This document shows positions 9,038 through 62,891 of a stretch of 64,000 bases of DNA, piece after piece. The notes under the pieces are model-generated. The model was given only the letters and a program-made list of their open reading frames with translations. It was not told where the DNA came from and did not search any database. The position numbers and the translations under genes were made by a program. Location of the stretch: positions 452,328 to 516,327 of the forward strand of contig CAVTCH010000019.1 in assembly GCA_963733255.1 (NCBI GenBank), read 5' to 3'. This DNA comes from an uncultured Actinomycetes bacterium. Lineage in GTDB: Bacteria; Actinomycetota; Thermoleophilia; UBA2241. Position 1 is the stretch's first letter. Each line of letters starts with the position of its first letter.

Positions 9038-9050
9038 GCGCCGGCATCGG

Positions 9051-9090
9051 CGATCGCGGGGCGGCGGCCGGCGCCGCCGCCCCGCGATCG
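9051..9090. terminator. GC-rich perfect palindrome downstream of the SBP gene
   Basis: CGATCGCGGGGCGGCGG-ccggcg-CCGCCGCCCCGCGATCG seen directly. Confidence 0.55.
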
Positions 9091-9101
9091 CGACGCGTGC
9101 G

Positions 9102-9353
9102 ATGGACGACGCAAAGGCAGCCATCGTGGCCAGCCGTCTCGACGAGGGAAGCGCCCGTGAGGCGCTGCAGCGGCTGATCGCGGCGCTGCTCGAAGTAGAA
9201 GACCGCTACCGCTTCTTGCTCAGCCAGGACATCCTGCGGACCTCACACCAGGACGACGGCGCGCTCGAGGAGCGCCTGGGGCGGCCGATACGACGACTCT
9301 TCGAGCGCGGCAGAGCTGCCGGCGAGTTCTCGCGCTCGCTCAGAGCCGACTGA
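9102..9353 (+). pseudogene. Possible remnant of a TetR-family regulator (C-terminal ligand-domain-like fragment only, no HTH)
   Basis: 83-aa ORF starts immediately after a terminator hairpin. Resembles TetR C-terminal helices but lacks an N-terminal DNA-binding domain. Confidence 0.25.
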
Positions 9354-9427
9354 ATGATGGCCGCCCTGGGCGCCGTGCTCGTGGCCGTTGCCGTCGAGAT
9401 CGCGCCCTGAGCGGGTGCCCTGGAAAG

Positions 9428-9465
9428 GCTGAGATTCGCGGCGCGACCGCGCCGCGAATCTCAGC
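9428..9465. terminator. Palindrome GCTGAGATTCGCGGCGCG..CGCGCCGCGAATCTCAGC at the 3' end of fmdB copy 1
   Basis: Seen directly. Overlaps the stop of the minus-strand gene. Confidence 0.5.
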
Positions 9466-9466
9466 C

Positions 9467-9667
9467 TCAGCCGAACGGACTGCCCGTCGGCGCGCCGCAC
9501 CCGGAGCTCGACCCGGAGCTGCCACTCAGAAAGCTCGAGAACTTCTGGTGTACGTTGCGCGAGCCGCACTTGGGGCATTCCTCCTGCTCGGCCCTGATGA
9601 AGCCGATCGAGAACACCTCGAAGGCGTGATCGCAATCCGCACACACGAAATCGTAAAGTGCCACCAT
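9467..9667 (-). CDS. FmdB-family zinc-ribbon protein (CxxC...CPKCGS), copy 1
   Basis: MVALYDFVCADCDHAFEV...CPKCGSRNVHQKFS... followed by a Gly/Ser-rich tail. Confidence 0.8.
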   Translation of the reverse strand: MVALYDFVCADCDHAFEVFSIGFIRAEQEECPKCGSRNVHQKFSSFLSGSSGSSSGCGAPTGSPFG

Positions 9668-9791
9668 GCCTCGCTTTCTTTCAGTCACTGTGTTGACACC
9701 GGCGCACGGCACGAGCAGACGGTGACGAGCGTGAGCTCGACCCGCCGCGAACCGGCGCTGAGCGGCGCGACCGCGCCGCGGGCGATCAGCC

Positions 9792-9986
9792 TCAGCCGTA
9801 GCTCGTGCGCTGGGCGCCGCACTGGGGGTTCGTCAGTGAGCCGTTGCGCAGGAAGCTCGCCAGCGTCTGGCGCACGTTGCGCGAGCCGCACTTGGGGCAG
9901 CGCTTCTGCTTCTCTTTGATCGCGCTTCGGGTGACGACCCCGAAGGCGTGCTTGCAGTCGGTGCACACGAGATCGAAGTCGGCCAT
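9792..9986 (-). CDS. FmdB-family zinc-ribbon protein, copy 2 (paralog)
   Basis: MADFDLVCTDCKHAFGV...CPKCGSRNVRQTLASF... Start overlaps the stop of the upstream ferredoxin-like gene. Confidence 0.8.
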   Translation of the reverse strand: MADFDLVCTDCKHAFGVVTRSAIKEKQKRCPKCGSRNVRQTLASFLRNGSLTNPQCGAQRTSYG

Positions 9987-10183
9987 CAGCGCACCGACAC
10001 CTCGTCGGCGACCAGCGAGAACACGTGGCAAAGCTGGGTGCAGGCGCCGCACTCGGTGCAGAGCTCGTGATCGATGCGCGGCGCGCTGAAGATGTCGTCC
10101 TGGATGATGGCGCCCTCGGGGCACCTGCTCGCCGCCGGACAGGGGTGGTTCTGGGGGCACGCGCTGACATTGACTGAGATCAT
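9986..10183 (-). CDS. Small 4Fe-4S ferredoxin-like protein
   Basis: CTECGACTQLC (CxxCxxCxxxC) plus a second degenerate Cys cluster. GGGAGA RBS. Confidence 0.5.
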   Translation of the reverse strand: MISVNVSACPQNHPCPAASRCPEGAIIQDDIFSAPRIDHELCTECGACTQLCHVFSLVADEVSVR

Positions 10184-10208
10184 CGAGCTTCTCCCGTGGT
10201 GGTCGGCG

Positions 10209-10550
10209 TTAACTGGATGTTGCCAGGCTCTCCGGTTCGAGCGCGCGAGCGCGCAGCGCGAGTTCGTGGCCGAGGATCTCGTCGATCAGCCGGCAGGCCT
10301 CGGCGAGCCGCGGGTCGACGACCTCCCACAGCACCTGGCCGTCCTGCCGTGTGCGCTTCACCAGGCCTTCGCGCTGCAACACCGCGAGGTGTTGGGAGAC
10401 GTTGGGACGGCTCACGTCGAGCAGTTCGGCGAGCTCGCTCGGCGTGCGTGCCCCACCGCAGAGGCGGTGCATGAGCTCGTGTCGCGTAGGGTTGGCGAGG
10501 GCCGCGAAGACGGCGGCGTGAATGGCGTAGCGCTGTCGATCGTCGTTCAT
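10209..10550 (-). CDS. ArsR/SmtB-family transcriptional regulator
   Basis: NPTRHELMHRL...ELAELLDVSRPNVSQHLAVLQREGLV is a classic ArsR wHTH. Confidence 0.85.
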   Translation of the reverse strand: MNDDRQRYAIHAAVFAALANPTRHELMHRLCGGARTPSELAELLDVSRPNVSQHLAVLQREGLVKRTRQDGQVLWEVVDPRLAEACRLIDEILGHELALRARALEPESLATSS

Positions 10551-10568
10551 GACCCCATTATCACCAAG

Positions 10569-10584
10569 TTTCGCAATTTCGCAA
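10569..10584. promoter_or_regulatory. Tandem TTTCGCAA TTTCGCAA motif in the divergent arsR/osmC intergenic region (candidate operator)
   Basis: Seen directly in the 158-bp AT-richer intergenic region. Confidence 0.3.
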
Positions 10585-10708
10585 CATGGAAATCTGCTTG
10601 TCGGTGTCGTAGACTCTTGGAGAGGCTCTCTGAGAGGCTCCGCGAGACCTGCGTTCGATGTACGCAAGAGAGACGGTTGCACTCTCTCGAAAGAAAGGAT
10701 CCCGACTC

Positions 10709-11101
10709 ATGGACATGCAGATCTACTTTCCGGGCGGCAAGCGCGTCTATGCCGACTTCGCCGGCTTCACCGTCGAGACCGACCAGCCGGCAGGCAGCGG
10801 CGGCGACGGCTCGGCGCCGGCGCCCTTCGACCTGTTCCTGGCCTCGATCGGCACCTGCGCCGGCATCTACGCGCTCGGCTTCATGCAGCAGCGTGGCATC
10901 GACCCGCAGGGTTCCGGTCTCACCATGCGGTCGCACTCCGACCCCGATGTCGGGCTCATCACCAGGATCGAGCTCGAGCTCAAGCTGCCGGCCGGCTTTC
11001 CAGAGAAGTACCGCGACGCCATCGTGAGCGCCATGAACCTGTGTACGGTGAAGAAGCACCTGGCAAAGGCCCCGGCCTTCGAGCTCACCGCGGTGGTCTG
11101 A
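10709..11101 (+). CDS. OsmC/Ohr-family protein
   Basis: MDMQIYFPGGKRVYADFAGFTVETDQP...IGTCAGIY... matches the OsmC fold family. AAAGAAAGGA RBS. Confidence 0.85.
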   Translation: MDMQIYFPGGKRVYADFAGFTVETDQPAGSGGDGSAPAPFDLFLASIGTCAGIYALGFMQQRGIDPQGSGLTMRSHSDPDVGLITRIELELKLPAGFPEKYRDAIVSAMNLCTVKKHLAKAPAFELTAVV

Positions 11102-11813: not shown

Positions 11814-12194
11814 CTAGTGTTGGCAGGCGCCGTCCATACCGACCACCGGCAGGCCGCCCTTCACGAAGGCGTCGACCGACGTCTGCACGTCGCTGCCGAG
11901 ACCTGCAAGCACCGCGATGCCGACCTGGTTGAAGCCCATCAGCGGGCGCCCGCCGATGCCGTCGACGACGATGGCGTCGACTTGATGTTCGGCCAACACC
12001 ATCACAGGGGCCATGCAGCCGCCTTCGACATGCGGCGCGTTCTGCAGCACTTCGACCTCACCGATCTTGCCGTCGAGCACGTCGACCATGGTGAAGCACT
12101 CGGCGCGGCCGAAGTGGCCGGAGCGGCGGGCGGTGAGGCCGCCGGGCGCCTCGGAAGGAACGGCGATGCGGATCGTCTTGCTGTCTTCAGTCAT
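11814..12194 (-). CDS. NifX/NifB-like dinitrogenase FeMo-cofactor-binding family protein
   Basis: IAVPSE...GHFGRAECFTMVDV...NAPHVEGGCMAPVMVLAEHQVDAIVVDGIGGRP...GIAVLAG is the Nitro_FeMo-Co fold pattern. AGGAGA RBS. Confidence 0.75.
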   Translation of the reverse strand: MTEDSKTIRIAVPSEAPGGLTARRSGHFGRAECFTMVDVLDGKIGEVEVLQNAPHVEGGCMAPVMVLAEHQVDAIVVDGIGGRPLMGFNQVGIAVLAGLGSDVQTSVDAFVKGGLPVVGMDGACQH

Positions 12195-12240
12195 GAGCCT
12201 CGTTCTCCTATCGATTGAGGAACACGTACGATCGGTGTGA

Positions 12241-12768
12241 TCAGTCGGTGCGACCCCCGGAGCCGCCGCGACGAGCGCGGCAGCCGGGCGGGCTGCCTTG
12301 GCCGGACGGGCTGCCCTGCGCGCAGCGTCCGCGACCGCCGCCGCGCCCGCAGCGAGGGCCGCCGCGCCAGCAGACACCGACGTCGGCAGACCCACACTTC
12401 GGGCACGACGACGCGCGGCTGCTCTCTTCGTCGGCGGTCCACAGCTCCTGGCACGAAAAGCAGCGCCACTGCCGCGGCTCGACGCGATACTGCCCGCCGC
12501 CGATCACGATGGCCTTGCCGCCGACCAGGGCCTCGGCGACCTTGGCCCGGCCGCGCTCGAGCACCCGGCCCACCGTCTGCCGCGAGACGCCCATGGCCGC
12601 GGCCGCCTCCTCGTGACTAAGCCCGTCGAGGTCGACCAGGCGGATGGCTTCGAGCTCGTCGACGGCGAGCGGGAGCTGGTCGAGCTCTCGAGCCGGCACG
12701 CCGGCCGGCTTGAACAGTGTGACTCGCGGGACACCGCCAACGGCGCGCTCAATCGGAGGTCGCGCCAC
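12241..12768 (-). CDS. DUF134 (UPF0251) predicted DNA-binding protein with Cys-rich C-terminal extension
   Basis: TLFKPAGVPARELDQLPLAVDELEAIRLVDLDGLSHEEAAAAMGVSRQTVGRVLERGRAKVAEALVGGKAIVI matches the DUF134 sigma-70-region-4-like core. GTG start. Confidence 0.75.
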   Translation of the reverse strand: MARPPIERAVGGVPRVTLFKPAGVPARELDQLPLAVDELEAIRLVDLDGLSHEEAAAAMGVSRQTVGRVLERGRAKVAEALVGGKAIVIGGGQYRVEPRQWRCFSCQELWTADEESSRASSCPKCGSADVGVCWRGGPRCGRGGGRGRCAQGSPSGQGSPPGCRARRGGSGGRTD

Positions 12769-12875
12769 GGCCCGCTCCAGGAGTTAGTAGCATATGCCCA
12801 TTATAACGACCGGTCCGTCGGCCTTCAAGCGGGCGTTCTCAGGCCGGTCCGTCGCGCCCCTCAAGCCGGCCGGGG

Positions 12876-13397
12876 CTACCGGCCGTACGCCGCCCGGTAG
12901 CGATCGCAGAGCTCGACGTAGGTCTGTTTGAAGACCCGCCAGGCCGCCTTGAACTCGTCGTCGACGGGGCGGTCGAGGAGGCGCGCCGGCACACCCGCGG
13001 CGATGGCCGCCGGCGGCACGACGGCGCGCTGCGGCACGACCGCCCCTTCGGCTACGACCGCCCACTCGCCGACGTCGGCCCAGTCGCTTACGACTGCTCC
13101 CATGCCGATGACCGCGTAGTCGGCCAGGGACGCGTTGTGCACGACGCAGCCGTGACCGAGCGTCACCCACGAACCGATCGTGCAGATCTCGCCGGGGCGA
13201 GCGTGCACCACGCAGTTGTCTTCGATCGCAGAGCAGTCACCCACCACGATCCGTCCATAGTCGCCGCGCAGGCGCGCGCCCGGACCGATCCAGCAGCGAT
13301 CGCCAACGGTCACGTCACCCAGCACATCCGCCGAGGGATGCACCCAGGTCCCTTCGCCCAAGCGGGGGCTCCTGCCCTCAAAGGGAGCCAGGCTCAC
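12876..13397 (-). CDS. Gamma-carbonic-anhydrase-like / hexapeptide-repeat (PaaY/YrdA family) protein
   Basis: Left-handed beta-helix hexapeptide repeats (VGDRCWIGPGARLRGD..., IEDNCVVH..., IGSWVTLGHGCVVH). GTG start overlaps the upstream stop. Confidence 0.85.
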   Translation of the reverse strand: MSLAPFEGRSPRLGEGTWVHPSADVLGDVTVGDRCWIGPGARLRGDYGRIVVGDCSAIEDNCVVHARPGEICTIGSWVTLGHGCVVHNASLADYAVIGMGAVVSDWADVGEWAVVAEGAVVPQRAVVPPAAIAAGVPARLLDRPVDDEFKAAWRVFKQTYVELCDRYRAAYGR

Positions 13398-14143
13398 GAC
13401 CGGCTCACGCCCGACTTCAGGCTCGGGTCAAAGAAGTCGCAGCGCTCTCGGGCGCACTGCGCGTTGCGCGCCGGGTAGCCGCAGCGCACGCCATCATCCG
13501 CCGGCAAGTCGATCGCGAGATGGTCGTGCAGGTAATCGACGGCCGCCCGCACTGCGACTCGCGACGCCCGCTTACAGCAGCGCGGCTCCCCGTCGACCAT
13601 GCGGGCCAGCGCGTGGGCGGTCGCGCCCAGGGCGAGCGAGCGCTGTTCTCCCTTCAGTGGGCTCGCACCCGTGAGAGCGCTGACCGCGACCCCGACGCCG
13701 ACGGCGGCGCCACAGGCGCCGTAGTAGCCACACCACCCGCCCGGCACCTTGGCGGCCCGTTTCAGGGCCCCCTCAAGGCATCCGTCGGGGATCGCGACAC
13801 CGGCGTTGCGGACCGCGGCGATGATCACGCCCGGGACTATGGCGTGGTGCTCGGGACCGTGCATGGGCAACCCCGGATGGGCCATCACCTGTTCGAGGAT
13901 CGCCGCCGGGTCGGCGAGCGTCGTGGTGGTCAGCACGTGCCGTACGGCCTCCATCGCCGTCCTGCCGTGACAGGCGTCGCACACGAAATGTCCCGCGGGG
14001 CAGTAGATGAGCGTCGCCTGCTCCGCGCCGCACAGGTCGCAGACGCGCTCGACAGGATCGGTGGCATAGACCAGGGCCTTGCCGCACACGCCGCAGTCCG
14101 TCATCGATGCCATGTGCTCGGACGTCATCGTGTCGTCGATCAC
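13394..14143 (-). CDS. Cys-rich metal-binding protein of unknown function (possibly DUF5714-like)
   Basis: N-terminal CxxC pairs (DCGVCGK, CDLCGAE, CDACHG), central GPEHHAIVPGVIIAAV and GGWCGYYGACGAA, C-terminal Cys cluster. Family call is tentative. Confidence 0.4.
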   Translation of the reverse strand: MIDDTMTSEHMASMTDCGVCGKALVYATDPVERVCDLCGAEQATLIYCPAGHFVCDACHGRTAMEAVRHVLTTTTLADPAAILEQVMAHPGLPMHGPEHHAIVPGVIIAAVRNAGVAIPDGCLEGALKRAAKVPGGWCGYYGACGAAVGVGVAVSALTGASPLKGEQRSLALGATAHALARMVDGEPRCCKRASRVAVRAAVDYLHDHLAIDLPADDGVRCGYPARNAQCARERCDFFDPSLKSGVSRS

Positions 14144-14209: not shown

Positions 14210-14620
14210 CTAGAGCACCTGCACGACGTCGGCATCCTCGCAACGCGAGATGTACTCGGCGATGCCGACGATGTCGTCGACCAGGTCGACGAAGTCGTCG
14301 AGCGCGCCGGCGCCCCAGATCTTGCCGGCCGTGCCGCAGCAATGGATGCGGACCTTGCCGTCGACCTTGAGCTTGCGCAAGCTGTCGAGGGGCGCCGGCA
14401 CCGCGTTGCCGGCCATGCCGGCGGCCATCTCCTGGGCCAGCTCGGGGCGGTCGCTGTAAGTGCCGTTGCCGGCCACGTCCTTGCGAAAGGCGTAAGCGCC
14501 GCCGAGCAGCAGGTAGATGTCGACGTCCATGTCGAGAGCCACGGCGCCGCCCGTGACCGTGCTGGTGACGACGAGCTTCTCGAGACTGCCGCTCGCCAGA
14601 CCGATGACCATAGAGCTCAT
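14210..14620 (-). CDS. DsrE/DsrF-like family protein (small, 136 aa)
   Basis: DsrE-fold pattern (IGLASGSLEKLVVTSTV..., VRIHCCGTAGKIWGAG). Purine-rich RBS. Confidence 0.5.
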   Translation of the reverse strand: MSSMVIGLASGSLEKLVVTSTVTGGAVALDMDVDIYLLLGGAYAFRKDVAGNGTYSDRPELAQEMAAGMAGNAVPAPLDSLRKLKVDGKVRIHCCGTAGKIWGAGALDDFVDLVDDIVGIAEYISRCEDADVVQVL

Positions 14621-14681
14621 GGTGTCCCCCTCTGCCTCAGGTGGATGGGTCGCCGCCCGCACTCGCGGTCGTTGAACGCCG

Positions 14682-15212
14682 CTAGATGAACAGATTCACG
14701 TTGGCTTCGTCGGCCTCGCCGAGGTAGGTCGCCACTCCGGCGAACTCGAGCCCGTCGATGAGCTCCTCCTCCTTGAACCCGAGGATGTCCATCGAGAGCG
14801 TGCAGGCGATGAACTTCACGCCCTGCTCCCTGGCGGTGTCGACCAGCTCCTCGAGCGACATGGCGTTGGCCTTCTTCATGACCTGCTTCATGAGCGGCGC
14901 GCCGGCGCCGGCGAAGTTCATCTTGGACAGCCCGAGGTGACGCGTGCCCTTGGGCATCATCTTGCCGAACATGGCCTGCAGGGCGCTCTTTTTGTCGGTC
15001 GTCTGCACCTTCTCGGGCTTACGCAGGATGTTCAGACCCCAGAACGTGAAGAACATGGTGACGTCGTCGCCCATCGCCGCGGCGCCGTTGGCGATGATGA
15101 AGGCGGCCATGACGCGGTCGAAGTCGCCGCTGAACAGGATGATCGTCTTCTTGGTGGTCGTCGCGGGAGCGCTCTCCTCGCTCTCCACGATGGCTTGAGT
15201 CTGTTCGTCCAT
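14682..15212 (-). CDS. DsrE/DsrF-like family protein (COG2044-type, 176 aa)
   Basis: KKTIILFSGDFDRVMAAFIIANGAAAMGDDVTMFFTFWGL...KFIACTLSMDILG... typical of DsrE-family sulfur-relay proteins with a conserved Cys. AAGGGGGA RBS. Confidence 0.6.
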   Translation of the reverse strand: MDEQTQAIVESEESAPATTTKKTIILFSGDFDRVMAAFIIANGAAAMGDDVTMFFTFWGLNILRKPEKVQTTDKKSALQAMFGKMMPKGTRHLGLSKMNFAGAGAPLMKQVMKKANAMSLEELVDTAREQGVKFIACTLSMDILGFKEEELIDGLEFAGVATYLGEADEANVNLFI

Positions 15213-15223
15213 GTCGTCCCCCT

Positions 15224-16201
15224 TCAGGCTACGTAGGCTTCGCGGAGATACTGCGAGATGTCGGTGAAGCGCATCGTGTCGCCGGCCGCGGTGCTCAGGT
15301 TCACGAAGCACATCGGGCACATGGTGACGCAGTCGGGGGCCACGTCGCGTAGCTGGGCCACGCGCTTGGCGGCGTTGGCCGCCGCCTTGGCCGGGTAGAG
15401 CGATTCGATCGGGCCGCCGCAGCACCAGGTCTGACGGCCCGCGTTCTCGGGGTCGCGTACGGTGAGGCCCGCGGCCGCGAGCAGCTCACGCGGTTCGTCC
15501 ACCATGCTCTCGTACCGGGCGAAGACGCACGAGTCGTGCATCACCACCTCACCGGAGCGCCCGGCCGCACCGTTCCCGCTCGCGACGAGCCCCTTCTCGG
15601 CCAGGACTTCGAGGTAGCTGCGGACCTCTACGTCGTAGCCCTGGAGGATCTTCGGATAGACACTGCGCAGCATGGTCGTGGTGTGCGGGTCGATCGTGAT
15701 GACCTGCTTCACGCCGTGCTTTCTGAAGACGGCCTGTACGCGGCGGGCATGGGCGGCCACGACCTCGTCGGCGCCCAGGTCGTAGGCCAGAGCGCCCGAG
15801 TAAAGGTCGTCCTCGTAGAGCGCGCCGAAGGCGACTCCGGCCTTGCGCAGCAGATGGACGACGTTGATCGGGACCTGGTCGTACTGGGCGCGCTCCTGCG
15901 CCGAGGGCCGCGCCATGAAGGCCGAGATGTTCACCAGGCGATTGACCCGGCGCCCGACGCCGGTCAGGCCGGCCAGCCACGAGTCGCCCAGCCGCTGCTC
16001 GGCCTTCACGAGCCCCTCGATGTAGGGGATGAGCTGGTACATCATGCCGGTGTAGAGGACGGTCTCGCCGCCGCGCGGCAACCCAAGGCCCTCGGTCCAC
16101 TTGGTCGAGACTCTGGCGGACAGCGGCAGCACCGACTTACGCAGGCGCAGGTTGTCGGCCAAAATACCGATGACGTCGCCGGTCGGTAGGGGCATGGTCA
16201 T
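15224..16201 (-). CDS. hdrB: Heterodisulfide reductase subunit B-like (HdrB; single C-terminal CCG domain)
   Basis: C-terminal DSC..x33..WCCGGP..x34..CVTMCPMC is a CCG cysteine-rich domain. The N-terminal half has no Cys. AGGAGGA RBS. Confidence 0.8.
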   Translation of the reverse strand: MTMPLPTGDVIGILADNLRLRKSVLPLSARVSTKWTEGLGLPRGGETVLYTGMMYQLIPYIEGLVKAEQRLGDSWLAGLTGVGRRVNRLVNISAFMARPSAQERAQYDQVPINVVHLLRKAGVAFGALYEDDLYSGALAYDLGADEVVAAHARRVQAVFRKHGVKQVITIDPHTTTMLRSVYPKILQGYDVEVRSYLEVLAEKGLVASGNGAAGRSGEVVMHDSCVFARYESMVDEPRELLAAAGLTVRDPENAGRQTWCCGGPIESLYPAKAAANAAKRVAQLRDVAPDCVTMCPMCFVNLSTAAGDTMRFTDISQYLREAYVA

Positions 16202-16207
16202 CTCCTC

Positions 16208-16513
16208 CTAGAGTCCGAAGACGGTACGGTCGATGTGGTGGCGCAGCGTGCGCACGTTTTCGGCGATGTGCACGCCCGACGGACAGTTCTCCTCGCACAT
16301 CTTGCACAGCAGGCACGAGAAGACCGTCTCGGTCTCGGCGCGCACGCGGTCCTCCATGCCCAGGAGCACGTAGCGAAACAGCTTGCGGGGCTGCACCTCG
16401 ACCCCCATCGGGCAGATCGCCGAGCACACGCCGCAGTTCATGCAGGCGTCGGCGTTGAATCCGTCCGCGCGGTCGAGCTCGGCCGCCAGTGCGGGGTTCA
16501 CGAGAACCGTCAT
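16208..16513 (-). CDS. hdrC: Heterodisulfide reductase subunit C-like (HdrC; 2x[4Fe-4S])
   Basis: CMNCGVCSAICPMG and CLLCKMCEENCPSG ferredoxin motifs. ATG overlaps the upstream stop (ATGA). Confidence 0.8.
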   Translation of the reverse strand: MTVLVNPALAAELDRADGFNADACMNCGVCSAICPMGVEVQPRKLFRYVLLGMEDRVRAETETVFSCLLCKMCEENCPSGVHIAENVRTLRHHIDRTVFGL

Positions 16514-16809
16514 GAGCCCTCCCTGGCGATGATCTGATACCGGAAGTAGCCCTCGTCGGTGACTTCCTTGATCTCGGCCAGCCAGCCGTACTTGCGCAGG
16601 CCCATGACCCAGAACATCACCTCGTGGGACGGACGTTCGACGGCCGCCGCGATCTCAGGCACCGTGAGGGGCCCCTCAGCGAGCGCCGCCAGGATGCGGC
16701 GCCGCATCACCTGTTCGTCGCGCACGATCTCGCGCACGTCGCGGTTGCCGGGGGACGCCTCTCTGACGGTCGTGCCGCCGGCGCCGTGGTTGTCGTGTGC
16801 CGGCGTCAT
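16510..16809 (-). CDS. Small conserved hypothetical protein between hdrA and hdrC (winged-helix-like, ~99 aa)
   Basis: C-terminal 99 aa of the long listed ORF (MTPAHDNHG...RRRILAALAEGPLTVPEIAAAVERPSHEVMFWVMGLRKYGWLAEIKEV...). Translationally coupled on both sides (ATGA overlaps). Confidence 0.5.
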   Translation of the reverse strand: MTPAHDNHGAGGTTVREASPGNRDVREIVRDEQVMRRRILAALAEGPLTVPEIAAAVERPSHEVMFWVMGLRKYGWLAEIKEVTDEGYFRYQIIAREGS

Positions 16810-18545
16810 GAGCAGCTCACCTCCAGGAGGCCGTCGATCATGGCCTTGATCTGGGCGTCGGTGTAGCCCTGCAGGTCGATCGCTTCGGTGGGACACACCG
16901 GCACGCAGCCGCCGCAGCCCTTGCAGGCCGTGCGGATGACACCGGCGACCGCCTTGCCGTCGGCCTCGACCTGCTCGAGGGCATCGTAGGGGCAGGCTTC
17001 CACGCACTTGCCGCACCAGGTGCAGGCGTCCGTATCGACCAGCGCCACCATCGGGTCGAGCTCGGCGAAGCCGCGCTTCAGGATGGCGCCGCTTTGCGTG
17101 ACGGCCGCGAGGCCGCTGGCCACCGCTTCGGCCGAGTTCTTGGGCGACTGGCAGGCGCCGCAGATGTAGACGCCGTCGACGACCGTCTCGACGGGGCGCA
17201 GCTTGGGATGGATCTCGTTGAAGAAGCCGTCGTTGCCGACGGGCAGCTTGAGCACGCTGACCAGCTCGCCGTTCTCGCGCGACACCATGCCGGTGACGAG
17301 CACCACGAGGTCGGCCGGGATGGACACCTCTTCGCCGCCGGTGAGCAGGTCGCGAGTGGTGACTTCGAGCCCGCCGGTGACGAGATTCCTCACCGCCGGC
17401 GGCTCGTCGTCGGGCACGCGCAGGTAGACCGAGCCCTTCTCGCGCGACTCGCTCCACAGCAGCTCGTACTTGCCGTAGGTGCGCATGTCACGGTAGAGGT
17501 GGTACTGGCGCAGCGCCGGGTCGCCCTTGGCGGCCGCTTCGAGCGCCGCATGCACGGCGGCCGTGCAACAGTAGCGCGAACAGTACGGGTGCCCGCCCTC
17601 GACGTCTTCGCCCTGACGGCTGCCGACGCAGTAGACGTAGGCGATCGTCTTGACCGGCCGGCCGTTGTACTGCAGCGGCCCGTCCGCCTGGTCGAGCATC
17701 TGCTTGAACTCGGGAAGGGTGACGACTCCCTCCACGCCGTAGCCGAACTCGCCGGCCGCGGGCTCGTAGGTGTCGAAGCCGGTGGCCACGACGACGGAGC
17801 CGACCTCTACTTGGATGGTCTCGAGCTTCTCGCCCTGGATGGCTATCGTCATCTGGTAGTTGCCGAAGCTGCCGCTCTTCCCCATCACCTCGGCATCGGT
17901 GAACACGGTGACGGCCGGATGGCTGCGCACCTTCGCTTCGAGGCCGGCCACCAGGTCGGCGCCATCGCGGCCGTGCGGGTACATCTCACCGAAGCCGGCG
18001 ACCCAGCCGCCGAGCCGTGGCTCCTTCTCTACGAGAAAGACGGAGAGCCCGATCTCGGCCAGCCCGAGGGCCGCCCGCAGACCGGCGATGCCGCCGCCCA
18101 CGACGAGGCTCCTGGGAGTCGTCTCTACGACGATCGGTTCGAGGGGCTCGGTCAGACGCGTGCGGTTGATGCCGGCGCGCACCAGGCGCACCGCCTTCTC
18201 GGTCGCACCTTCGTGGTCGTCGGTGTGCGTCCACGAGCACTGCTCGCGCACGTTCACCTGCGTGTACTGGAAGGGGTTCATACCGGCGCGCCTGGCCACG
18301 TCACGGAAGGTGACCGTGTGCAACTTGGGCGAGCACGAGGCCACGACGAGCGCGTCGAGGCCCTTCTCGTGGGCGTCCTGCACGATCTCCTGCTGGGTCG
18401 CGTCGGAGCAGGTGAACATTGCCGTGCGGGCGACCACGACGTCGGCGTCGTGCTCGACCGCGGCGACCACCTGCTCGACGTCGACGTAGTCGCTGATGTT
18501 GCCGCCGCACTGGCAGACGTACACGCCGATCTTGCGGCCGCTCAT
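16806..18545 (-). CDS. hdrA: Heterodisulfide reductase subunit A (HdrA, full-length methanogen-type)
   Basis: N-terminal HdrA-specific Cys domain KIGVYVCQCGGNISDYVD...FTCSD...ASCSP, FAD site VVGGGIAGLRAALGLAEIG, C-terminal CVGSRQ...CSRYCC and 2x[4Fe-4S] (CTWCGKCVEACP, CKGCGGCVPVCP). Confidence 0.85.
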   Translation of the reverse strand: MSGRKIGVYVCQCGGNISDYVDVEQVVAAVEHDADVVVARTAMFTCSDATQQEIVQDAHEKGLDALVVASCSPKLHTVTFRDVARRAGMNPFQYTQVNVREQCSWTHTDDHEGATEKAVRLVRAGINRTRLTEPLEPIVVETTPRSLVVGGGIAGLRAALGLAEIGLSVFLVEKEPRLGGWVAGFGEMYPHGRDGADLVAGLEAKVRSHPAVTVFTDAEVMGKSGSFGNYQMTIAIQGEKLETIQVEVGSVVVATGFDTYEPAAGEFGYGVEGVVTLPEFKQMLDQADGPLQYNGRPVKTIAYVYCVGSRQGEDVEGGHPYCSRYCCTAAVHAALEAAAKGDPALRQYHLYRDMRTYGKYELLWSESREKGSVYLRVPDDEPPAVRNLVTGGLEVTTRDLLTGGEEVSIPADLVVLVTGMVSRENGELVSVLKLPVGNDGFFNEIHPKLRPVETVVDGVYICGACQSPKNSAEAVASGLAAVTQSGAILKRGFAELDPMVALVDTDACTWCGKCVEACPYDALEQVEADGKAVAGVIRTACKGCGGCVPVCPTEAIDLQGYTDAQIKAMIDGLLEVSCS

Positions 18546-21259
18546 GCCTGCACCTTCACTTTCGCTCCGTCGGCTACCTTTGCCCTCTCGAGGTGGGCGG
18601 CGGCCTGGGCCACCGCGGCGCCCGCGTGGAGGATGGAATCGGGGATATCCTTGGCGCCGGCCGCCGCCCCGGCGACAAAGACGCCCGGCAGGTTGGTCCG
18701 GCCGGGATCCAGGTCTTCGTCGGCCTCGCCGACGTAGTAGTAGTCGTCGAGTGCGAGAGCGCCGTCTTCGAACAGGGCCGGCGCCTCGCCGTTGGGCTGC
18801 ACGCCGACGGCCAGCACGACGAGGTCGTGTTCGGCCTCGGCCGGTTCGCCGCCGTTCTCGATGTCCTCGTACCGCAGCACGAGGTTGCCCTCACCGGTCT
18901 CGGTGATGCCCGAGACGCGGCCTTTGACGAAGTTGGCGCCCATGTCCTTGGCCTGCTGGTAGAACTCGTCGTAGCCCTTCCCCACCGAACGCACGTCGAT
19001 GTAGTAGACAGTCACGTCGGCAAGCGGCAGGGCGCCCATGATGAGCTGGTTCTGCTTGACCGAGTACATGCAGCAGATCTTGGAGCACAGCGGGTTGCCG
19101 ACGGTGTCGTCGCGCGAGCCGGTGCACATGACGTAGGCGATGTTGTCGGGCACCTTGCCGTCGCTGGGCCGCAGCACGGCGTTGTAGGGCCGGGTCGGCG
19201 CCAGAAGGCGGTCCATCTGCATGCCGGTGATGACGTTCTTGTAACGCCCGTAGCCGTACTGTGGCTTGGCGTCGGCGGCAAAGAGCCCGAAGCCGGTGGC
19301 CAGCACGACCGCGCCGACCTCGACGTCGATCTCGCGGCCGCGATCGTCGAGCTTGATGGCGTCGGCCGGACAGGCGTCGACGCAGGCGTGACACTCCGAG
19401 CAGACGCCGCAGTCGAGACAGCGAGCCGCGCCCAGGAACGCCTCGTCTTCGCTCAACGGGCCCTCGGTCTCGCTGAAGTCGGTGGGCGCCGCGCTCATGG
19501 CGGCGCTCGACTCGAACGGCTCGCGACGATCGTACGAGTCCTGCCTGGCAAGCACCTCGGCCTTGTCGACCACCGGCAGCGCCTCGTCGAAGGCGTCGGC
19601 GTCGAGCTCCGCGCCCTGGAGATAGCGGTCGATCATGAAGGCGGCGCGGCGACCCTGACCGACGGCGGTCGTGATCATGGTCGGGCCGGTGACGACGTCG
19701 CCGGCGGCGAACACCTGCGGCACGCTGGTCTGCAGCGTCGCCTCGTCGGCCTTGAGCGTGTGATTGCCGTTGGTCTCGAGGCCGAACGCGTCCGTGTCGG
19801 CGCCCATGCCCGCGGCCACGATGACCACGTCGCACTCCAGACTCTGGCGCTGTGTCTCGTCGTACTCGGGGTGGAAGCGCCCGGCGGGATCGAACACACA
19901 GGTGCAGACCTTGAGCTCGGCGCCCTGCACGCGGCCGTCGCCGGTGAAGTGATCGATGCCCCAGCCGTCGTGCAGCGTGATGCCTTCGGCCTGAGCCTCT
20001 TCGACTTCGAAGTCGTGGGCCGGCATCTCCTCGCAGCACTCGAGGCTGACCTGGTCGACCGAAGCGGCCGCGAGACGGCGCGCGGTGCGCGCCGCGTCGA
20101 TGGCGACGTTACCGCCGCCGACCACCAGGACGCGCTTGCCGGAGAGCTCGACGGGCTCGCCGAGCTTGACGGCTCGCAGGAACGCCAGCGCACTCTGCAC
20201 GCCGGCGAGCTCTTCGCCGGGCACCCGCAGGCCCACCGACTTGTGCGTGCCGGTAGCCAGCAGCACAGCGTCGAAGCCGTCGTTTGCGAGCGCCGTCGCG
20301 TTCTCGACACGCACGCCGGTGGCGATCTCGACTCCGATCGCCGTGACGTTGGCGACGTCGTGGTCGACGACCTCGTTGGGCAGCCGGTACGCGGGGATGG
20401 CGAGGCTCAGCATGCCGCCCGGCTTGGGCGCCGCCTCGAAGATCTTGACGCCGTAGCCGCGGCGCGCGAGCTGCCAGGCGGCGGTGAGGCCGGCCGGACC
20501 CGACCCGACGACGGCGACCTTCTTGCCGTTGGGCTCGGGCTGTGCCGGGGCCTGCGGCTCGGCCTGGCCGTAGCGCCGGTCCGCGATGAAACGCTTGAGA
20601 CGACGGATCGGCAGTGGACCTTCGATCTCGCCGCGCGTGCACTCGTCCTCGCAGGGCGCATAGCAGGCGCGCCCGAGGCTGCCTACCAGCGGTGTGGTCT
20701 CCAGCACCAGGTCGAACGCCTGGTCGTATTCGCCGCTGCGCACCCGTGCCACGTAACCGTGCGCCTTGATGCCGGCCGGGCAGTTGTAGGTGCAGGGCGA
20801 GACGCCGGCGCGGTCGATGACCGCCTTCTTGGGCACCGCCTGCGGAAACGCGATATATGCCGCCCGTCGCGACACCATGTCGGCGTTGAACTCGTCGGGC
20901 ACGGCCACGTTGCAGGCCATCTCGCACAGGCGGCAGCCGGTACAGGCGGCCTCGTCTATGAACTTGGGCTTCTGGCGGACGGTGGCGTGGTAGCCGCCGT
21001 TGCCGTCGCCGCGGATGCCGTCGACCTCGGCGTAGGTGAGCACATCGATGTTGGGATGGTGGATGGTGGCGGCCATCTTGGGGGTGGAGATGCAGCTCGC
21101 GCAGTCGAGTGTCGGAAACACCTTGCTGAGCAGGATCATCTTGCCGCCGACGCTGGCCTGCTTTTCGACGACGAGCACCTTGTAGCCCATGTCGCCCAGC
21201 TTGAGCGCCGACTCCATCCCCCCGATGCCGCTGCCGACCACCAGAGCGTCGTACTTCAT
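18542..21259 (-). CDS. HdrA-like / glutamate-synthase-small-subunit (GltD-like NAD(P)H) fusion protein (HdrL-like, 905 aa)
   Basis: N-terminal FAD site plus FPTLDCASCI (HdrA signature) and ferredoxin insert. Middle SPCTYNCPAGI, GKKVAVVGSGPAGLTAAWQLARRGYGVKIFE, AAGD (GltD-like). C-terminal HdrA half (CTGSRDD, CSKICC). Confidence 0.8.
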   Translation of the reverse strand: MKYDALVVGSGIGGMESALKLGDMGYKVLVVEKQASVGGKMILLSKVFPTLDCASCISTPKMAATIHHPNIDVLTYAEVDGIRGDGNGGYHATVRQKPKFIDEAACTGCRLCEMACNVAVPDEFNADMVSRRAAYIAFPQAVPKKAVIDRAGVSPCTYNCPAGIKAHGYVARVRSGEYDQAFDLVLETTPLVGSLGRACYAPCEDECTRGEIEGPLPIRRLKRFIADRRYGQAEPQAPAQPEPNGKKVAVVGSGPAGLTAAWQLARRGYGVKIFEAAPKPGGMLSLAIPAYRLPNEVVDHDVANVTAIGVEIATGVRVENATALANDGFDAVLLATGTHKSVGLRVPGEELAGVQSALAFLRAVKLGEPVELSGKRVLVVGGGNVAIDAARTARRLAAASVDQVSLECCEEMPAHDFEVEEAQAEGITLHDGWGIDHFTGDGRVQGAELKVCTCVFDPAGRFHPEYDETQRQSLECDVVIVAAGMGADTDAFGLETNGNHTLKADEATLQTSVPQVFAAGDVVTGPTMITTAVGQGRRAAFMIDRYLQGAELDADAFDEALPVVDKAEVLARQDSYDRREPFESSAAMSAAPTDFSETEGPLSEDEAFLGAARCLDCGVCSECHACVDACPADAIKLDDRGREIDVEVGAVVLATGFGLFAADAKPQYGYGRYKNVITGMQMDRLLAPTRPYNAVLRPSDGKVPDNIAYVMCTGSRDDTVGNPLCSKICCMYSVKQNQLIMGALPLADVTVYYIDVRSVGKGYDEFYQQAKDMGANFVKGRVSGITETGEGNLVLRYEDIENGGEPAEAEHDLVVLAVGVQPNGEAPALFEDGALALDDYYYVGEADEDLDPGRTNLPGVFVAGAAAGAKDIPDSILHAGAAVAQAAAHLERAKVADGAKVKVQA

Positions 21260-21696
21260 GCTGCCGATGCCTTTCGGGAGGGGCCGAGCTTGGTCAGGGA
21301 CGCGGAGAACTCGTGCATGTAGTTGGTAAAGGGCTCGGCACAGACCGAGCAGATGGCCGCCATGCGCAGCCGCTGGGGCTCATAGCCGTGGTCCACGAGC
21401 AACGCCTGAGCGTCGGCCATGATCTGTGAGGTGCGCTCGCTGCAGTCGGACAGGTAGGCGCATTCGTCGCCGTCAGCGGCCACGAAGACGCCGTCGAAGC
21501 CCTGCTGGATCGCGTAGAGCGCCCAGCTCGGCTTGATGCCGCTCGTGCAGGGCACGCTGATCACCATGACGTTGGGCGAGTAGTGCATGTGCGAGCTGCC
21601 GGCCAGATCGATGCCCGGGTCGGAGATGTTGTTGGTCGAAAGCACAAGGATGCGCGGCTCGAAGCCCTGCTCGTCGCGTGACTGCAGATCCGCCAT
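21256..21696 (-). CDS. mvhD: MvhD/FlpD-like hydrogenase delta-subunit family protein
   Basis: VISVPCTSG...GFDGVFVAADGDECAYLSDCSE aligns to the MvhD core. The N-terminal CCxxC motif is replaced by LSTNNIS. Confidence 0.7.
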   Translation of the reverse strand: MADLQSRDEQGFEPRILVLSTNNISDPGIDLAGSSHMHYSPNVMVISVPCTSGIKPSWALYAIQQGFDGVFVAADGDECAYLSDCSERTSQIMADAQALLVDHGYEPQRLRMAAICSVCAEPFTNYMHEFSASLTKLGPSRKASAA

Positions 21697-21698
21697 CA

Positions 21699-21950
21699 CT
21701 ACTTCATCTTCTTGACGTACAACTTCATGAAGCTGGGCTCCTCGACCACGCCGAGAAACTCATGGCCCATCTTCTTGCACCAGGCGGGAAGGTCTTTCTG
21801 GGTGCCGGTGTCAGTCGCCTGGACCTCCATGACGCCGCCCACCGAGACACTCGGGATGCCCTTCTTGGCGGCCAGGATGGGGCCCGGGCACGACGTGCCT
21901 CGCGCGTCCACGACCTTCTCTACCTGGATGGTGCTGAGGTCTTCTGACAT
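21699..21950 (-). CDS. tusA: TusA-like sulfur carrier protein
   Basis: VDARGTSCPGPILAAKKG...EVQATDTGTQKDLPAWCKKMGHEF with the CPxP motif. AAGGAGAGGA RBS. Confidence 0.75.
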   Translation of the reverse strand: MSEDLSTIQVEKVVDARGTSCPGPILAAKKGIPSVSVGGVMEVQATDTGTQKDLPAWCKKMGHEFLGVVEEPSFMKLYVKKMK

Positions 21951-22093
21951 GGTCCTCTCCTTCACGATGGTGGGGCCTGAGGCCCGGTCCTGCTGCTTGT
22001 GTTTGTGAACTCTTTCGCAAGGAACGGCGTGCAAGGGCGTCGTTCGCTCCTGCGATGGGCTGTGATCTATCCCCTGGCTCGCTTGCCGGTGTT

Positions 22094-22540
22094 CTAGGCC
22101 GACGCCACCGTGGCGACCGGCTCTGAAGGCTGTGCCGAAGCTGCCGGCGTCTCGGCTGCCGGTGACGGCGCCGCGTCGAGCCGCTCGGCGGCCTGCAGCG
22201 ACTCGCCCTGCGCCTGATGCTGTTCCACCAGCGCCTGGCGGATCAGGGCGCACGCCTGCAGGAACTTCTGATTGGTGACGTGGTAGTAGACCGTCTGGGC
22301 CGCTTTGCGCGACGCGACGAGCCGACGCTCTTTGAGCACGCGCAGATGCTGCGACACGTTGTGCACAGAGATGCCGATCTCAATCGCCAGATCGCCGACG
22401 CACTTCTCGCCGTCGCCGAGTGCGTGCAGAAGTGCCTGGCGATGCTCGTTGGCGAGCGCCTTGCAGAGCTCGGCGTGCATGCGAAAGAGAGGCTCGAGGT
22501 CGGTTGTGGGGGTGTCTGTGATGTTGTCCGTTATTTGCAT
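22094..22540 (-). CDS. ArsR-family transcriptional regulator (sHdrR-like position upstream of the hdr array)
   Basis: LANEHRQALLHALGDGEKCVGDLAIEIGISVHNVSQHLRVLKERRLV is an ArsR wHTH. Co-directional, immediately upstream of tusA. Confidence 0.8.
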   Translation of the reverse strand: MQITDNITDTPTTDLEPLFRMHAELCKALANEHRQALLHALGDGEKCVGDLAIEIGISVHNVSQHLRVLKERRLVASRKAAQTVYYHVTNQKFLQACALIRQALVEQHQAQGESLQAAERLDAAPSPAAETPAASAQPSEPVATVASA

Positions 22541-23038: not shown

Positions 23039-23044
23039 CACCGT

Positions 23045-23080
23045 CAGGGGGCGGGAGTGCTTTCGCACTCCCGCCCCCTG
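23045..23080. terminator. Perfect 16-bp-stem palindrome (CAGGGGGCGGGAGTGC-tttc-GCACTCCCGCCCCCTG), bidirectional terminator
   Basis: Seen directly between convergent genes. Confidence 0.6.
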
Positions 23081-23135
23081 GTCTTCTTCTCAGTCGCCGG
23101 TCTTCCGCTCCGCCGGCGCACCTCGGTCGCCGTCT

Positions 23136-37154: not shown

Positions 37155-37180
37155 GTCGGGCTCGTGGTCTGAACGGCCCT

Positions 37181-37807
37181 TCAAGCAGCGAGGCGATCGA
37201 CCATCTCGGACGCAGTCAAATGAGCCACATAGACCGGCGCCCCGGGCTGGATCTTGCGCCCGCCCTGAGCAAGGCTGCCGACGTCCACCGGGTCGAAGCC
37301 GATCTCGTCGATCAGGGTGGCCACGGCGCGTTTGGCCTCAGTGTCATCGCCGGCCAGCGGCACGGCCAGCCGTCCGCCCGCGCCCCGCGGCCTGCCCTCG
37401 TCGGCCAGCACATCCCAGCGCACCGCGTTGAACGCCTTGACGAGACGCGCTTGCGGCAGATGCTCCTGCAGGAGCTCGCTCGACGTCAGGCGGTCGTCGT
37501 CGAGCTCAGGGAAGTGGCCGTCGCGCTGCGGGTAGTAGTTGTCGGTATCGACGACGATCTTGCCTCTGACCGGCTCGGGCGGCACCGTGCGGTACTGCCC
37601 CAGCGGTATCGAGACGATGACCACATCACCGTACCGGGCGGCCTCATCGACGGTCAGCGCCCGCGCGTTCGGGCCCAGGCTCGCCACGCGCGCCTCCAGC
37701 GAGTGCGGTCCGTGGGCGTTGGCCAGCGCAATGTCGTGGCCGGCGGCGGCGAGCTTGGCGGCCAGGGTACCGCCGATGTGGCCGGCGCCGATGATCCCTA
37801 TCTTCAT
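37181..37807 (-). CDS. NADP-binding F420-dependent-NADP-reductase (Npd/FNO)-like oxidoreductase
   Basis: [28 protein letters not shown]... is a Rossmann F420_oxidored-type N-terminus. Confidence 0.6.
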
Positions 37808-60605: not shown

Positions 60606-60633
60606 GGCGTCCGCCCCAGATTCGTCCCCGCGC

Positions 60634-62807: not shown

Positions 62808-62846
62808 GGCCGTCCTTTCGGCGCTCTCGTGCAAAACGGCAGGTGG

Positions 62847-62877: not shown

Positions 62878-62891
62878 GACACTCCTTCTCG

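Follow-up and report, generated by a model that had tools for sequence, protein, structure and literature searches.

We analysed a stretch of 64,000 nucleotides (the window) from an uncultured Actinomycetes bacterium of the Thermoleophilia (UBA2241; GenBank assembly GCA_963733255.1, contig CAVTCH010000019.1, positions 452,328 to 516,327). Its minus strand carries an operon of heterodisulfide reductase (Hdr)-like and sulfur-carrier genes in the order arsR, tusA, mvhD, hdrL, hdrA, a winged helix-turn-helix (wHTH) gene, hdrC, an hdrB with a single CCG domain, dsrE2 and a DsrE2B-like gene (Table 1). We characterized the hdrL gene and its neighbours, and found that HdrL is a real single protein: an HdrL-type HdrA that holds a GltD/NfnB-like NAD(P)H/FAD module within its chain.

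The hdrL open reading frame (ORF) starts with ATG and runs in a single frame with a uniform GC content at third codon positions (GC3) of 0.91, as is usual for genuine genes in this window, whose GC content is about 69%. A preliminary description, made from the sequence without its strand, had read the gene as a 905-residue HdrA with an inserted GltD-like module; that reading was upheld, and every motif quoted for it was found in HdrL. The N-terminal FAD fingerprint VVGSGIGG lies at amino acids (aa) 7–14 and FPTLDCASCI at aa 48–57, followed by further motifs at aa 154–164 and aa 245–275, AAGD at aa 518–521, CTGSRDD at aa 712–718 and CSKICCMYS at aa 725–733.

Domain searches with HMMER delimited the inserted module and matched it to the glutamate synthase and NADPH-oxidoreductase models that the preliminary description had expected. 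Pfam assigned Fer4_20, the N-terminal iron–sulfur (FeS) domain of GltD and DPD, to aa 154–229 and Pyr_redox_2 to aa 246–536 (E = 8.6e-43), while the NCBIfam model NF009410 aligned to aa 142–650 with 453 bits. On both sides of the module, HdrL aligned to solved HdrA structures (9sfi, 8rvu and 5odc; E about 1e-100, best 4e-102), with aa 5–150 matching HdrA residues 146–290 and aa 615/618–895 matching HdrA residues 291–570. Because the flanking HdrA residues 290 and 291 are contiguous, the GltD-like region at aa ~151–619 is a true insertion. It enters between the two CxxCxxCxxxC motifs of HdrA's own inserted ferredoxin domain, which are the first [4Fe-4S] motif C106, C109, C112 and C116 upstream and the second, C620, C623, C626 and C630, downstream. 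The HdrA part further contains FPTLDC53ASC56, the equivalent of HdrA Cys197, and the FAD domain's own cluster ligands C712, C725, C729 and C730.

We then asked how widely this architecture is shared. More than 120 full-length sequence clusters of about 900 aa are 78–92% identical to HdrL, under names such as 'FAD-dependent oxidoreductase [Thermoleophilia bacterium]' or 'heterodisulfide reductase subunit A'. In a distant search of 1.84 billion 50%-identity representatives, dozens among the best 150 matches aligned to HdrL end to end. Their lengths fell into three groups, near 900 aa, near 1100 aa (HdrA N-terminal domain added) and near 1480–1530 aa (HdrL fused to a second HdrA). The architecture recurs in genomes of several phyla, and across 55 diverse aligned HdrLs (A2; 31–92% identity) all 22 FeS-ligand cysteines of HdrL show little or no variation.

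Structure prediction with AlphaFold2 (AF2) from 50 close homologues gave a poor model (predicted local distance difference test, pLDDT, 60.9; predicted template-modelling score, pTM, 0.50), which we discarded in favour of one built on alignment A2. The latter reached a pLDDT of 89.9 and a pTM of 0.85, with uncertainty confined to a linker at about aa 570–600 and the C-terminal tail. In Foldseek searches, the model superposed on solved HdrA across the insertion (template-modelling (TM) score by target 0.89–0.94), and its insert superposed on NfnB and GltD (TM by target 0.71–0.78; for 4ylf_B, 0.78 at a root-mean-square deviation of 2.6 Å). No entry of the Protein Data Bank (PDB) found by Foldseek spanned both the HdrA part and the insert (TM by query ≤0.48). 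The single frame, the uniform GC3, the full-length clusters, the recurrence among distant representatives and phyla, the invariant cysteines at the insertion point and the confident single-chain model together refute a misassembly or a read-through of two genes, a worry raised in the preliminary description that now has next to no probability.

The insert contains the two [4Fe-4S] ligand sets and the FAD/NADPH fold of NfnB- and NfnL-type proteins (C156, C160, C199, C203 and C207, together with C614 and C617 in an RCLDC motif), except that the RCxxC segment is moved to its C-terminal end. Its FAD fingerprint spans G252–G257 and its NAD(P)H fingerprint G381–A386. The best solved match was NfnA of NfnABC (9bov_A, aa ~153–630, E = 1.6e-91 to 3e-91); other matches were 9n5u_A, StnC (8oh5_C), NfnB (4ylf_B, E = 2e-61), NfnL (5jca_L) and GltD (E about 1e-43). 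The segment ...SEDEAFLGAARCLDCG (HdrL aa ~594–618) follows the flavin domain and resembles GltD residues 26–51 and NfnA residues 543–568; the E-value of this likeness is weak, as obtained with a 32-aa probe, and the motif is conserved. Read from the order of its sequence motifs, the insert is a circular permutation with the topology of NfnA and StnC. Consequently, both of its termini would emerge at the FeS end of the module.

The same permuted order, with RCLxCG after the flavin domain, is found in NfnA of NfnABC and in the Stn Bfu-type transhydrogenases (9BOV, 9N5U and 8OH5). The FAD of NfnA in Csac NfnABC sits at the end of an FeS chain and is a non-bifurcating entry point for NADPH (PMC11829005), and we liken the insert's FAD to this NADPH entry to a [4Fe-4S] chain. 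The surroundings differ: NfnA is fused to an Fdh/NuoG-like domain and partnered by NuoF/NuoE-like proteins, whereas the HdrL insert sits in HdrA. The coenzyme pocket differs as well. NfnA carries Y-R-R, for NADPH, as do all five of the five solved relatives of the insert, while the window's HdrL and its Thermoleophilia relatives carry S-L-E (S405-L406-E407). Among the diverse HdrLs of alignment A2, this pocket (HdrL aa 401–414, window positions 20018–20059) is YRR or (S/C)LE in about half each, and both forms occur inside the class of operons linked to tusA and dsrE2. Given S-L-E in the place of Y-R-R, the coenzyme of HdrL probably leans to NADH.

The neighbouring hdrA gene encodes a second HdrA-type flavoprotein of 579 aa (HdrA579), and any complex of the two would accordingly contain the two HdrA-type flavoproteins that the preliminary description had foreseen beside MvhD, HdrC and HdrB. 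That description had also called HdrA579 a full-length HdrA and the C-terminal half of HdrL canonical, and in both respects it has to be corrected. HdrL has no residues aligning to HdrA 1–145 or 571–654 in the solved-structure search; it lacks HdrA's N-terminal cluster domain and C-terminal ferredoxin domain and so departs from the canonical four-domain layout of HdrA. HdrA579 retains both, with an N-terminal cluster domain (C11, C13, C46, C71 and C103), an FAD-domain cluster (C306, C322, C326 and C327) and a C-terminal 2x[4Fe-4S] ferredoxin domain. In turn, the inserted ferredoxin domain (5odc residues 235–312) is missing from it entirely, and GEMYPHGRDGADLV stands in the place of FPTxDCxxC, leaving no equivalent of Cys197.

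Between the two HdrAs of the solved Mvh-Hdr complex, Cys197 from one chain completes the cluster held in the N-terminal domain of its partner (PMC9012536). Tandem HdrAs of anaerobic methanotrophic archaea (ANME) divide Cys197 and the N-terminal domain between them and are probably heterodimers (Chadwick et al., PMC9012536), and the HdrL/HdrA579 pair shows exactly this complementarity. We found the complementarity of HdrL and HdrA579 to be kept in 14 of the 14 class A and B loci examined (classes defined below), which suggests that the two proteins form an asymmetric heterodimer.

The two flavin sites differ in the residues cited as the mark of bifurcating HdrA flavins, E356 and K409 in M. thermolithotrophicus numbering (PMC9430772). 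At these positions HdrL has D683 and K735 and HdrA579 has K281 and H332. All close relatives of HdrL carry D or E plus K, and the partner HdrA never carries the E/K pair, which is thus another feature that HdrA579 lacks. If any HdrA-type flavin of the complex bifurcates, it would be the one in HdrL, the only one whose residues may be of the bifurcation type.

Table 1. Genes of the operon and domains of HdrL, in order along the minus strand (window positions)
Feature	Position	Strand	Description	Basis
arsR	22094..22540	minus	ArsR/SmtB-family regulator heading the cluster	Pfam HTH_5
tusA	21699..21953	minus	sulfur carrier, ~84 aa from Met101 of a longer ORF	Pfam TusA, E 2.9e-18
mvhD	21256..21699	minus	[2Fe-2S] electron-transfer subunit	Pfam FlpD, E 4.3e-29
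hdrL	18542..21259 (including stop)	minus	905-aa HdrA-type flavoprotein with nested GltD/NfnB-like module	ORF, Pfam, NCBIfam, PDB phmmer, AF2, Foldseek
HdrL aa 1-150	20810..21259	minus	first half of HdrA thioredoxin-reductase-like FAD domain	GSGIGG at aa 9-14
HdrL aa 151-619	19403..20809	minus	inserted GltD/NfnL-like module	Pfam, NCBIfam and PDB alignments
HdrL aa 620-905	18545..19402	minus	second half of FAD domain	aligns to HdrA 291-570
hdrA (HdrA579)	16806..18545	minus	partner HdrA, 579 aa	aligns to 5odc_A 4-234 and 313-650 only
wHTH gene	16510..16809	minus	99-aa winged-helix-like protein	translated hdrA-hdrC gap
hdrC	16208..16513	minus	HdrC-like, 101 aa	Pfam Fer4_17, Fer4_8; TIGR03290 and qmoC N-terminal matches
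hdrB	15224..16201	minus	HdrB-like, 325 aa, single CCG	Pfam CCG, one stretch at aa 219-302
dsrE2	14682..15215	minus	sulfur carrier, ~177 aa from Met71 of a longer ORF	Pfam DrsE_2, E 1.6e-63
DsrE2B-like gene	14210..14662	minus	second probable sulfur carrier, 150 aa	PDB 2QS7, E 7e-8

ATGA stop/start overlaps join four consecutive junctions in the series mvhD/hdrL/hdrA/wHTH/hdrC, pointing to co-translated subunits, the wHTH protein included. The gene for the latter is masked by a spurious 315-aa ORF (16510..17457) and is itself coupled by ATGA to both hdrA and hdrC. The wHTH protein had only weak HTH_20 and PF0610-like matches, and no curated family or solved relative was found for it; its gene occupies the same position in every class A and class B locus and appears again in a second Hdr cluster of locus L013. 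It is probably a subunit or chaperone rather than a free regulator.

The HdrC-like protein carries ligands for two [4Fe-4S] clusters (C24, C27, C30 and C34; C67, C70, C73 and C77). The HdrB-like protein differs from canonical HdrB, which has two CCG domains, each with a non-cubane [4Fe-4S] cluster. It has one CCG domain, with five cysteines spaced as C225-x34-C260C261-x33-C295-x2-C298 and no cysteine in its first 224 residues. With a single CCG motif, it would bind one non-cubane cluster, not two. The five cysteines, all in the C-terminal third, are kept in five related loci (L001, L002, L003, L013 and L022), and the best solved match is 9ojn_A, an 'iron-sulfur-binding reductase'.

Three genes for sulfur carriers, one of them a probable one, flank the Hdr core. 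TusA has the active-site motif RGTSCPGP and a ribosome binding site upstream of its ATG, and in loci of classes A and B its gene likewise precedes mvhD. DsrE2 matched the NCBIfam model SulfCarrDsrE2, and its gene is conserved in the same two classes. The 150-aa DsrE2B-like protein had no Pfam or NCBIfam match and gave an empty BLASTP comparison with DsrE2; its one link to DsrE2B is the solved relative 2QS7, which has been called a DsrE2B sulfur transferase (PMC11094781). Homologues of this protein adjoin tusA or dsrE2 in loci L017 and L019–L021, among them Bacteroidales and archaeal loci. No hydrogenase genes lie near mvhD.

At the head of the operon, arsR is conserved in five related loci (L001, L003, L013, L018 and L022). 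Its product matched HlyU, SmtB, BigR and SqrR in the PDB equally weakly, and these matches are non-diagnostic for persulfide versus metal sensing. A hairpin at 23043–23082, with a near-perfect 18-bp stem (13 GC pairs), lies between a major facilitator superfamily (MFS) transporter gene and arsR and is probably a terminator separating the MFS and arsR transcription units. A scan for promoters and terminators showed no internal operon signals beyond chance, and Rfam and tRNA scans of the window returned nothing. We considered whether the window is part of a dissimilatory sulfur island and rejected this, since none of the 56 window genes scanned is a dsr, apr or sat gene.

We compared the operon with related loci, taking one genome per species of the GTDB, and sorted them into three classes. 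Class A loci contain the whole operon with HdrL. They were found in Thermoleophilia (85–88% identity), Gaiellales, Acidimicrobiaceae and Actinomycetes, and also in metagenome-assembled genomes (MAGs) labelled as a proteobacterium, Bacillota and Gemmatimonadetes. In two loci, HdrC and HdrB are replaced. Locus L005 encodes a QmoC-like protein (12720–13955), an HdrC-like ferredoxin joined to a NarI-type membrane domain, which matched positions 4–360 of 360 of the NCBIfam qmoC model with 207 bits, under the cut-off of 300. Locus L018 encodes a 313-aa HdrC-like fusion (12732–13673) in which only the ferredoxin part, and no membrane domain, was detected.

Class B loci contain the same operon, with dsrE2, tusA, mvhD and the wHTH gene, except that HdrL is replaced by an insert-free HdrA of 432–452 aa, an exact deletion of HdrL aa 150–619. 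The next gene encodes a protein of 349–385 aa with an HdrC-like N-terminus and no membrane domain by Pfam. The hosts are Bacteroidales, Thermoproteota and Hodarchaeota. In the Hodarchaeota locus (L021), genes for a second TusA, for a sulfur transporter of YedE/YeeE type (PF04143) and for an ArsR regulator come after the insert-free cluster, at 8575–11071. Other HdrLs, 38–41% identical to that of the window, make up class C; mvhD accompanies them but tusA and dsrE2 do not, and their number includes proteins with an N-terminal domain and proteins fused to HdrA. Fused HdrL and HdrA in single ORFs of 1474–1507 aa, followed by mvhD, occur at L009 7959–12383, L015 7923–12446 and L079 9054–13523.

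The linkage of sulfur carriers to the Hdr core therefore extends across the Thermoleophilia, Gaiellales, Acidimicrobiaceae and the Bacillota, Gemmatimonadetes and proteobacterium MAGs, and in insert-free form across Bacteroidales, Thermoproteota and Hodarchaeota. In the 8-kb flanks of the related loci, searched with the window's proteins as queries (none of them of apr, dsr or sat type), only the core from tusA to dsrE2 recurred. The HdrA core of HdrL is 54–55% identical to the short HdrAs of class B, compared with about 40% to the cores of class C. Since the core is nearer to class B than to class C, the insert was probably gained on the tusA/dsrE2-linked lineage separately from the other HdrLs, judging by these identities. 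Multiple insertion events have been proposed for archaea (PMC12054007), which agrees with a separate acquisition.

The architecture of HdrL is already published and widespread (PMC2702500, PMC9430772, PMC9012536, PMC12054007). HdrL was defined in 2009 as a fusion of heterodisulfide reductase and glutamate synthase with an NAD(P)H-binding site, co-located with MvhD (PMC2702500). In Desulfobacterium autotrophicum, HdrL1 to HdrL3 all have mvhD adjoining, and one locus has tandem hdrL/hdrA with hdrB and hdrC (PMC2702500). In Syntrophobacter fumaroxidans, hdrABC lie beside mvhD and hdrL (Sfum_0819–0824), and the proteins are abundant with sulfate (PMC5947623). Compared by published descriptions, the fusion, the NAD(P)H site and the co-located mvhD are shared with these sulfate reducers. 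Here, however, there is no selenocysteine, the host is an actinomycetotal bacterium, HdrB has one CCG domain and a conserved wHTH gene is present; tusA, dsrE2 and the DsrE2B-like gene are in the operon, whereas the acceptor proposed for the sulfate reducers is DsrC.

The closest biochemical comparison comes from Moorella thermoacetica, whose purified MetFV-HdrABC-MvhD complex oxidises NADH (PMC5861303). Its HdrA of 1487 aa has an N-terminal ferredoxin and a domain resembling thioredoxin reductase (TrxR) that is interrupted by GltD, and its residues 922–1487 form an HdrA without the inserted ferredoxin domain (PMC9430772). This protein is thus the HdrL/HdrA579 pair in one chain, where the window has two ATGA-coupled genes, and the HdrL of the window is about 38–41% identical to the Moorella class. 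The fused ORFs of L009, L015 and L079 share the Moorella architecture, as do many representatives of 1470–1530 aa. In Moorella, both TrxR domains keep the E/K pair, compared with D/K in HdrL and K/H in HdrA579, and the acceptor in Moorella is MetFV (methylene-tetrahydrofolate), compared with a one-CCG HdrB and sulfur carriers here.

Related insertions are known from archaea. The HdrA-NfnB proteins of ANME-1 (HdrA9–11, described in 2022) carry a ~500-aa NfnB/GltD-like insertion in the inserted ferredoxin domain (PMC9012536), and the 'type III HdrA' of methane-metabolising archaea (2025) carries the same insertion (PMC12054007). For both, access for NAD(P)H in place of ferredoxin has been proposed (PMC9012536, PMC12054007). 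Unlike HdrL of the window, these proteins are archaeal, tied to the metabolism of the CoM-S-S-CoB heterodisulfide and derived from the HdrA classes A6 and A1.

Combining these observations, we propose that HdrL is not a stand-alone enzyme but the subunit through which NAD(P)H feeds a heteromeric FeS flavoprotein complex of Hdr/Qmo type, and that this complex acts on sulfur bound to TusA and DsrE2, a reading we hold with moderate confidence. HdrL and HdrA579 would form an asymmetric heterodimer with one interface [4Fe-4S] cluster, ligated by the N-domain cysteines of HdrA579 and by Cys56 of HdrL; both the heterodimer and the electron path are modelled on the solved MvhADG-HdrABC dimer as described in PMC9012536. 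NAD(P)H, probably NADH, would reduce the GltD-type FAD, which would serve as a simple converter of two-electron to one-electron transfer, as in NfnA. The electrons would then reach the HdrA-type FAD of HdrL by way of four [4Fe-4S] clusters, a pair in the module and a pair in the split ferredoxin domain, followed by the interface cluster. One branch from this flavin would take the C712/C725/C729/C730 cluster and HdrC as relays and end at the only non-cubane cluster of the one-CCG HdrB. MvhD, docked on the C-terminal ferredoxin domain of HdrA579, would provide a third port, to ferredoxin or another partner, and would permit bifurcation or confurcation.

The conserved gene linkage suggests that the HdrB substrate would be a disulfide, persulfide or thiosulfonate on TusA, DsrE2 or DsrE2B. 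The complex, which would have three flavins (two HdrA-type and one GltD-type), would accordingly work as an oxidoreductase that links NAD(P)H to sulfur held on sulfur carriers. We count the oxidation of NADH by the M. thermoacetica complex as a biochemical precedent for NAD(P)H entry.

Several observations weigh against this proposal or soften parts of it. The GxGxxA fingerprint is classically one of NADP-binding sites, and the coenzyme signals conflict in that GxGxxA points to NADP while the acidic end of the second beta strand and the loss of both Arg residues point to NAD. HdrL has Asp rather than Glu at the E356 position, making the 'bifurcating-type' call a soft one. The heterodimer and the electron path are derived from a homologous homodimer, and gene linkage is all that points to a sulfur-carrier substrate. 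It is not obvious that persulfide/sulfide couples are positive enough to let NADH reduce ferredoxin, and bifurcation may not occur. Finally, some class A loci have a QmoC-like membrane subunit, and the acceptor there may be a quinone, not a thiol.

As a possible extension, offered tentatively and well below the confidence we place in the proposal above, the operon would represent an uncharacterised, widespread class of asymmetric Hdr/Qmo-type complexes whose 'heterodisulfide' is TusA/DsrE2-bound sulfur. In the Actinomycetota type, an independently gained NAD(P)H dehydrogenase would have replaced the access for ferredoxin. If this were true, the complex would work in the cytoplasm as an NAD(P)H:carrier-persulfide (or thiosulfonate) oxidoreductase and might bifurcate by way of MvhD.

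Instead of a sulfur-carrier oxidoreductase, the operon could encode a type II Qmo-like complex. HdrL would then be the QmoA-like subunit and HdrA579 with MvhD the QmoB-like one, and HdrCB would take the place of QmoC, as it does in Gram-positive sulfate reducers. The partner of such a complex, within the dissimilatory metabolism of sulfate or sulfite, would be APS reductase or the quinone pool, and TusA and DsrE2 would be only loosely associated. Qmo complexes are built from two HdrA-like subunits, one short and one longer with an MvhD-like part, and from an HdrC-like subunit that may or may not carry a membrane domain (PMC4911364), and the subunit logic of our operon runs parallel to this architecture. 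'Type II' Qmo is nearer to HdrA and is found with or without Apr/Dsr, and variants of the form QmoAB-HdrBC, in which HdrCB is swapped for QmoC, exist (PMC10504309). The QmoC-like protein of L005 and the HdrC-like fusion of L018 fit this picture, the former with a score that remains under the family cut-off. Yet there is no apr, sat or dsr gene in the window and hence no linkage to aprBA or sat, mvhD is a separate gene upstream, tusA and dsrE2 are consistently inside the operon, and Qmo has no NAD(P)H module. We consider a Qmo function unlikely.

An oxidative, sHdr-like direction appears improbable. In this scheme, sulfane sulfur bound to TusA and DsrE-family proteins would be oxidised and its electrons delivered to NAD(P)+ through the GltD-like module. 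Genes for TusA and for sulfur transferases of the DsrE family are hallmark companions of sHdr clusters (PMC11094781), so that both systems link an Hdr-like FeS flavoprotein cluster to such genes; an ArsR-type regulator heads our operon, and GltD/Nfn-type modules are reversible in principle. The composition of the operon argues against it. Neither a second hdrB/hdrC pair, as in the HdrC1B1/C2B2 duplication, nor a lipoyl-carrier domain such as that of LbpA was found among the window genes scanned. The two HdrAs are not of the ~350-aa sHdrA type, with 6tjr_A matching only distantly to the C-terminal half (E = 1.5e-39). MvhD, which to our knowledge does not belong to the sHdr core, and the NAD(P)H module are present here, and the one-CCG HdrB differs from HdrB1 and HdrB2.

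The preliminary description had seen in the single chain of HdrL a self-contained bifurcating core of the NAD(P)H:ferredoxin/disulfide kind. Such a core could have two flavins that bifurcate, of NfnB type and of HdrA type. Over the Foldseek alignment, the insert shares 37% identity with Thermotoga maritima NfnB, and the FAD of NfnB bifurcates (PMC5861303). Two bifurcation sites were also raised for the ANME-1 HdrA-NfnB (Chadwick 2022, PMC9012536), and HdrL keeps D683 and K735. Without the N- and C-terminal ferredoxin domains, however, HdrL has neither a dock for MvhD nor a complete interface cluster, so that it does not form a core of its own. The insert is nearer to NfnA of NfnABC (311 bits) than to NfnB (213 bits), and the chain-end FAD of NfnA is judged to be non-bifurcating. 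No NfnA/NfnS-like partner ([2Fe-2S] plus FAD, FNR-like) was found among the operon or neighbouring genes. Because the NAD(P)H module occupies the ferredoxin-facing domain, a ferredoxin site on HdrL itself is doubtful, the same argument having been made in PMC12054007. A self-contained core is therefore very improbable.

The protein architecture itself is no discovery. The operon context is, as far as we checked, new to the literature searched: the split HdrL/HdrA pair, the one-CCG HdrB, the small wHTH subunit, the embedded TusA, DsrE2 and DsrE2B-like genes and the insert-free orthologues. We found no description of a tusA/dsrE2-linked Hdr operon in that literature, outside of which lie many subscription papers. 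Few of the bacterial HdrABC-like complexes have an established natural substrate; DsrC has been proposed for sulfate reducers, and we know of no substrate proposed for organisms without Dsr. Sulfur-carrier genes beside a one-CCG HdrB, combined with a built-in NAD(P)H input, suggest a specific reaction open to assay. As a two-gene counterpart that occurs in nature, the split HdrL/HdrA579 pair could help to assign the roles of the flavins in the enzyme family of the fused M. thermoacetica HdrA. Likewise, the insert-free orthologues and the variation between YRR and SLE are natural controls for how an electron-bifurcating scaffold changes its partner.

The remainder of the window encodes housekeeping functions. 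Downstream of the operon, the minus strand at 11814–14143 begins with a DUF5714 protein that matched the first half of the NCBIfam model MbdU ('metal-binding double selenoprotein MbdU') with 172 bits, against a cut-off of 600. It is followed by genes for a hexapeptide-repeat protein, a DUF134 HTH protein and a protein with a Nitro_FeMo-Co (NifX/NifB-like) domain; among these, only the hexapeptide gene recurs near the cluster in other loci (L001 and L013). Farther away on the same strand, 35250–37184 encodes an NhaA-type Na+/H+ antiporter fused to a C-terminal DsbA/thioredoxin-like domain, and 59751–62882 a protein with a sulfite-oxidase-type molybdopterin-binding domain beside an SBP_bac_11 solute-binding protein and an ABC permease.

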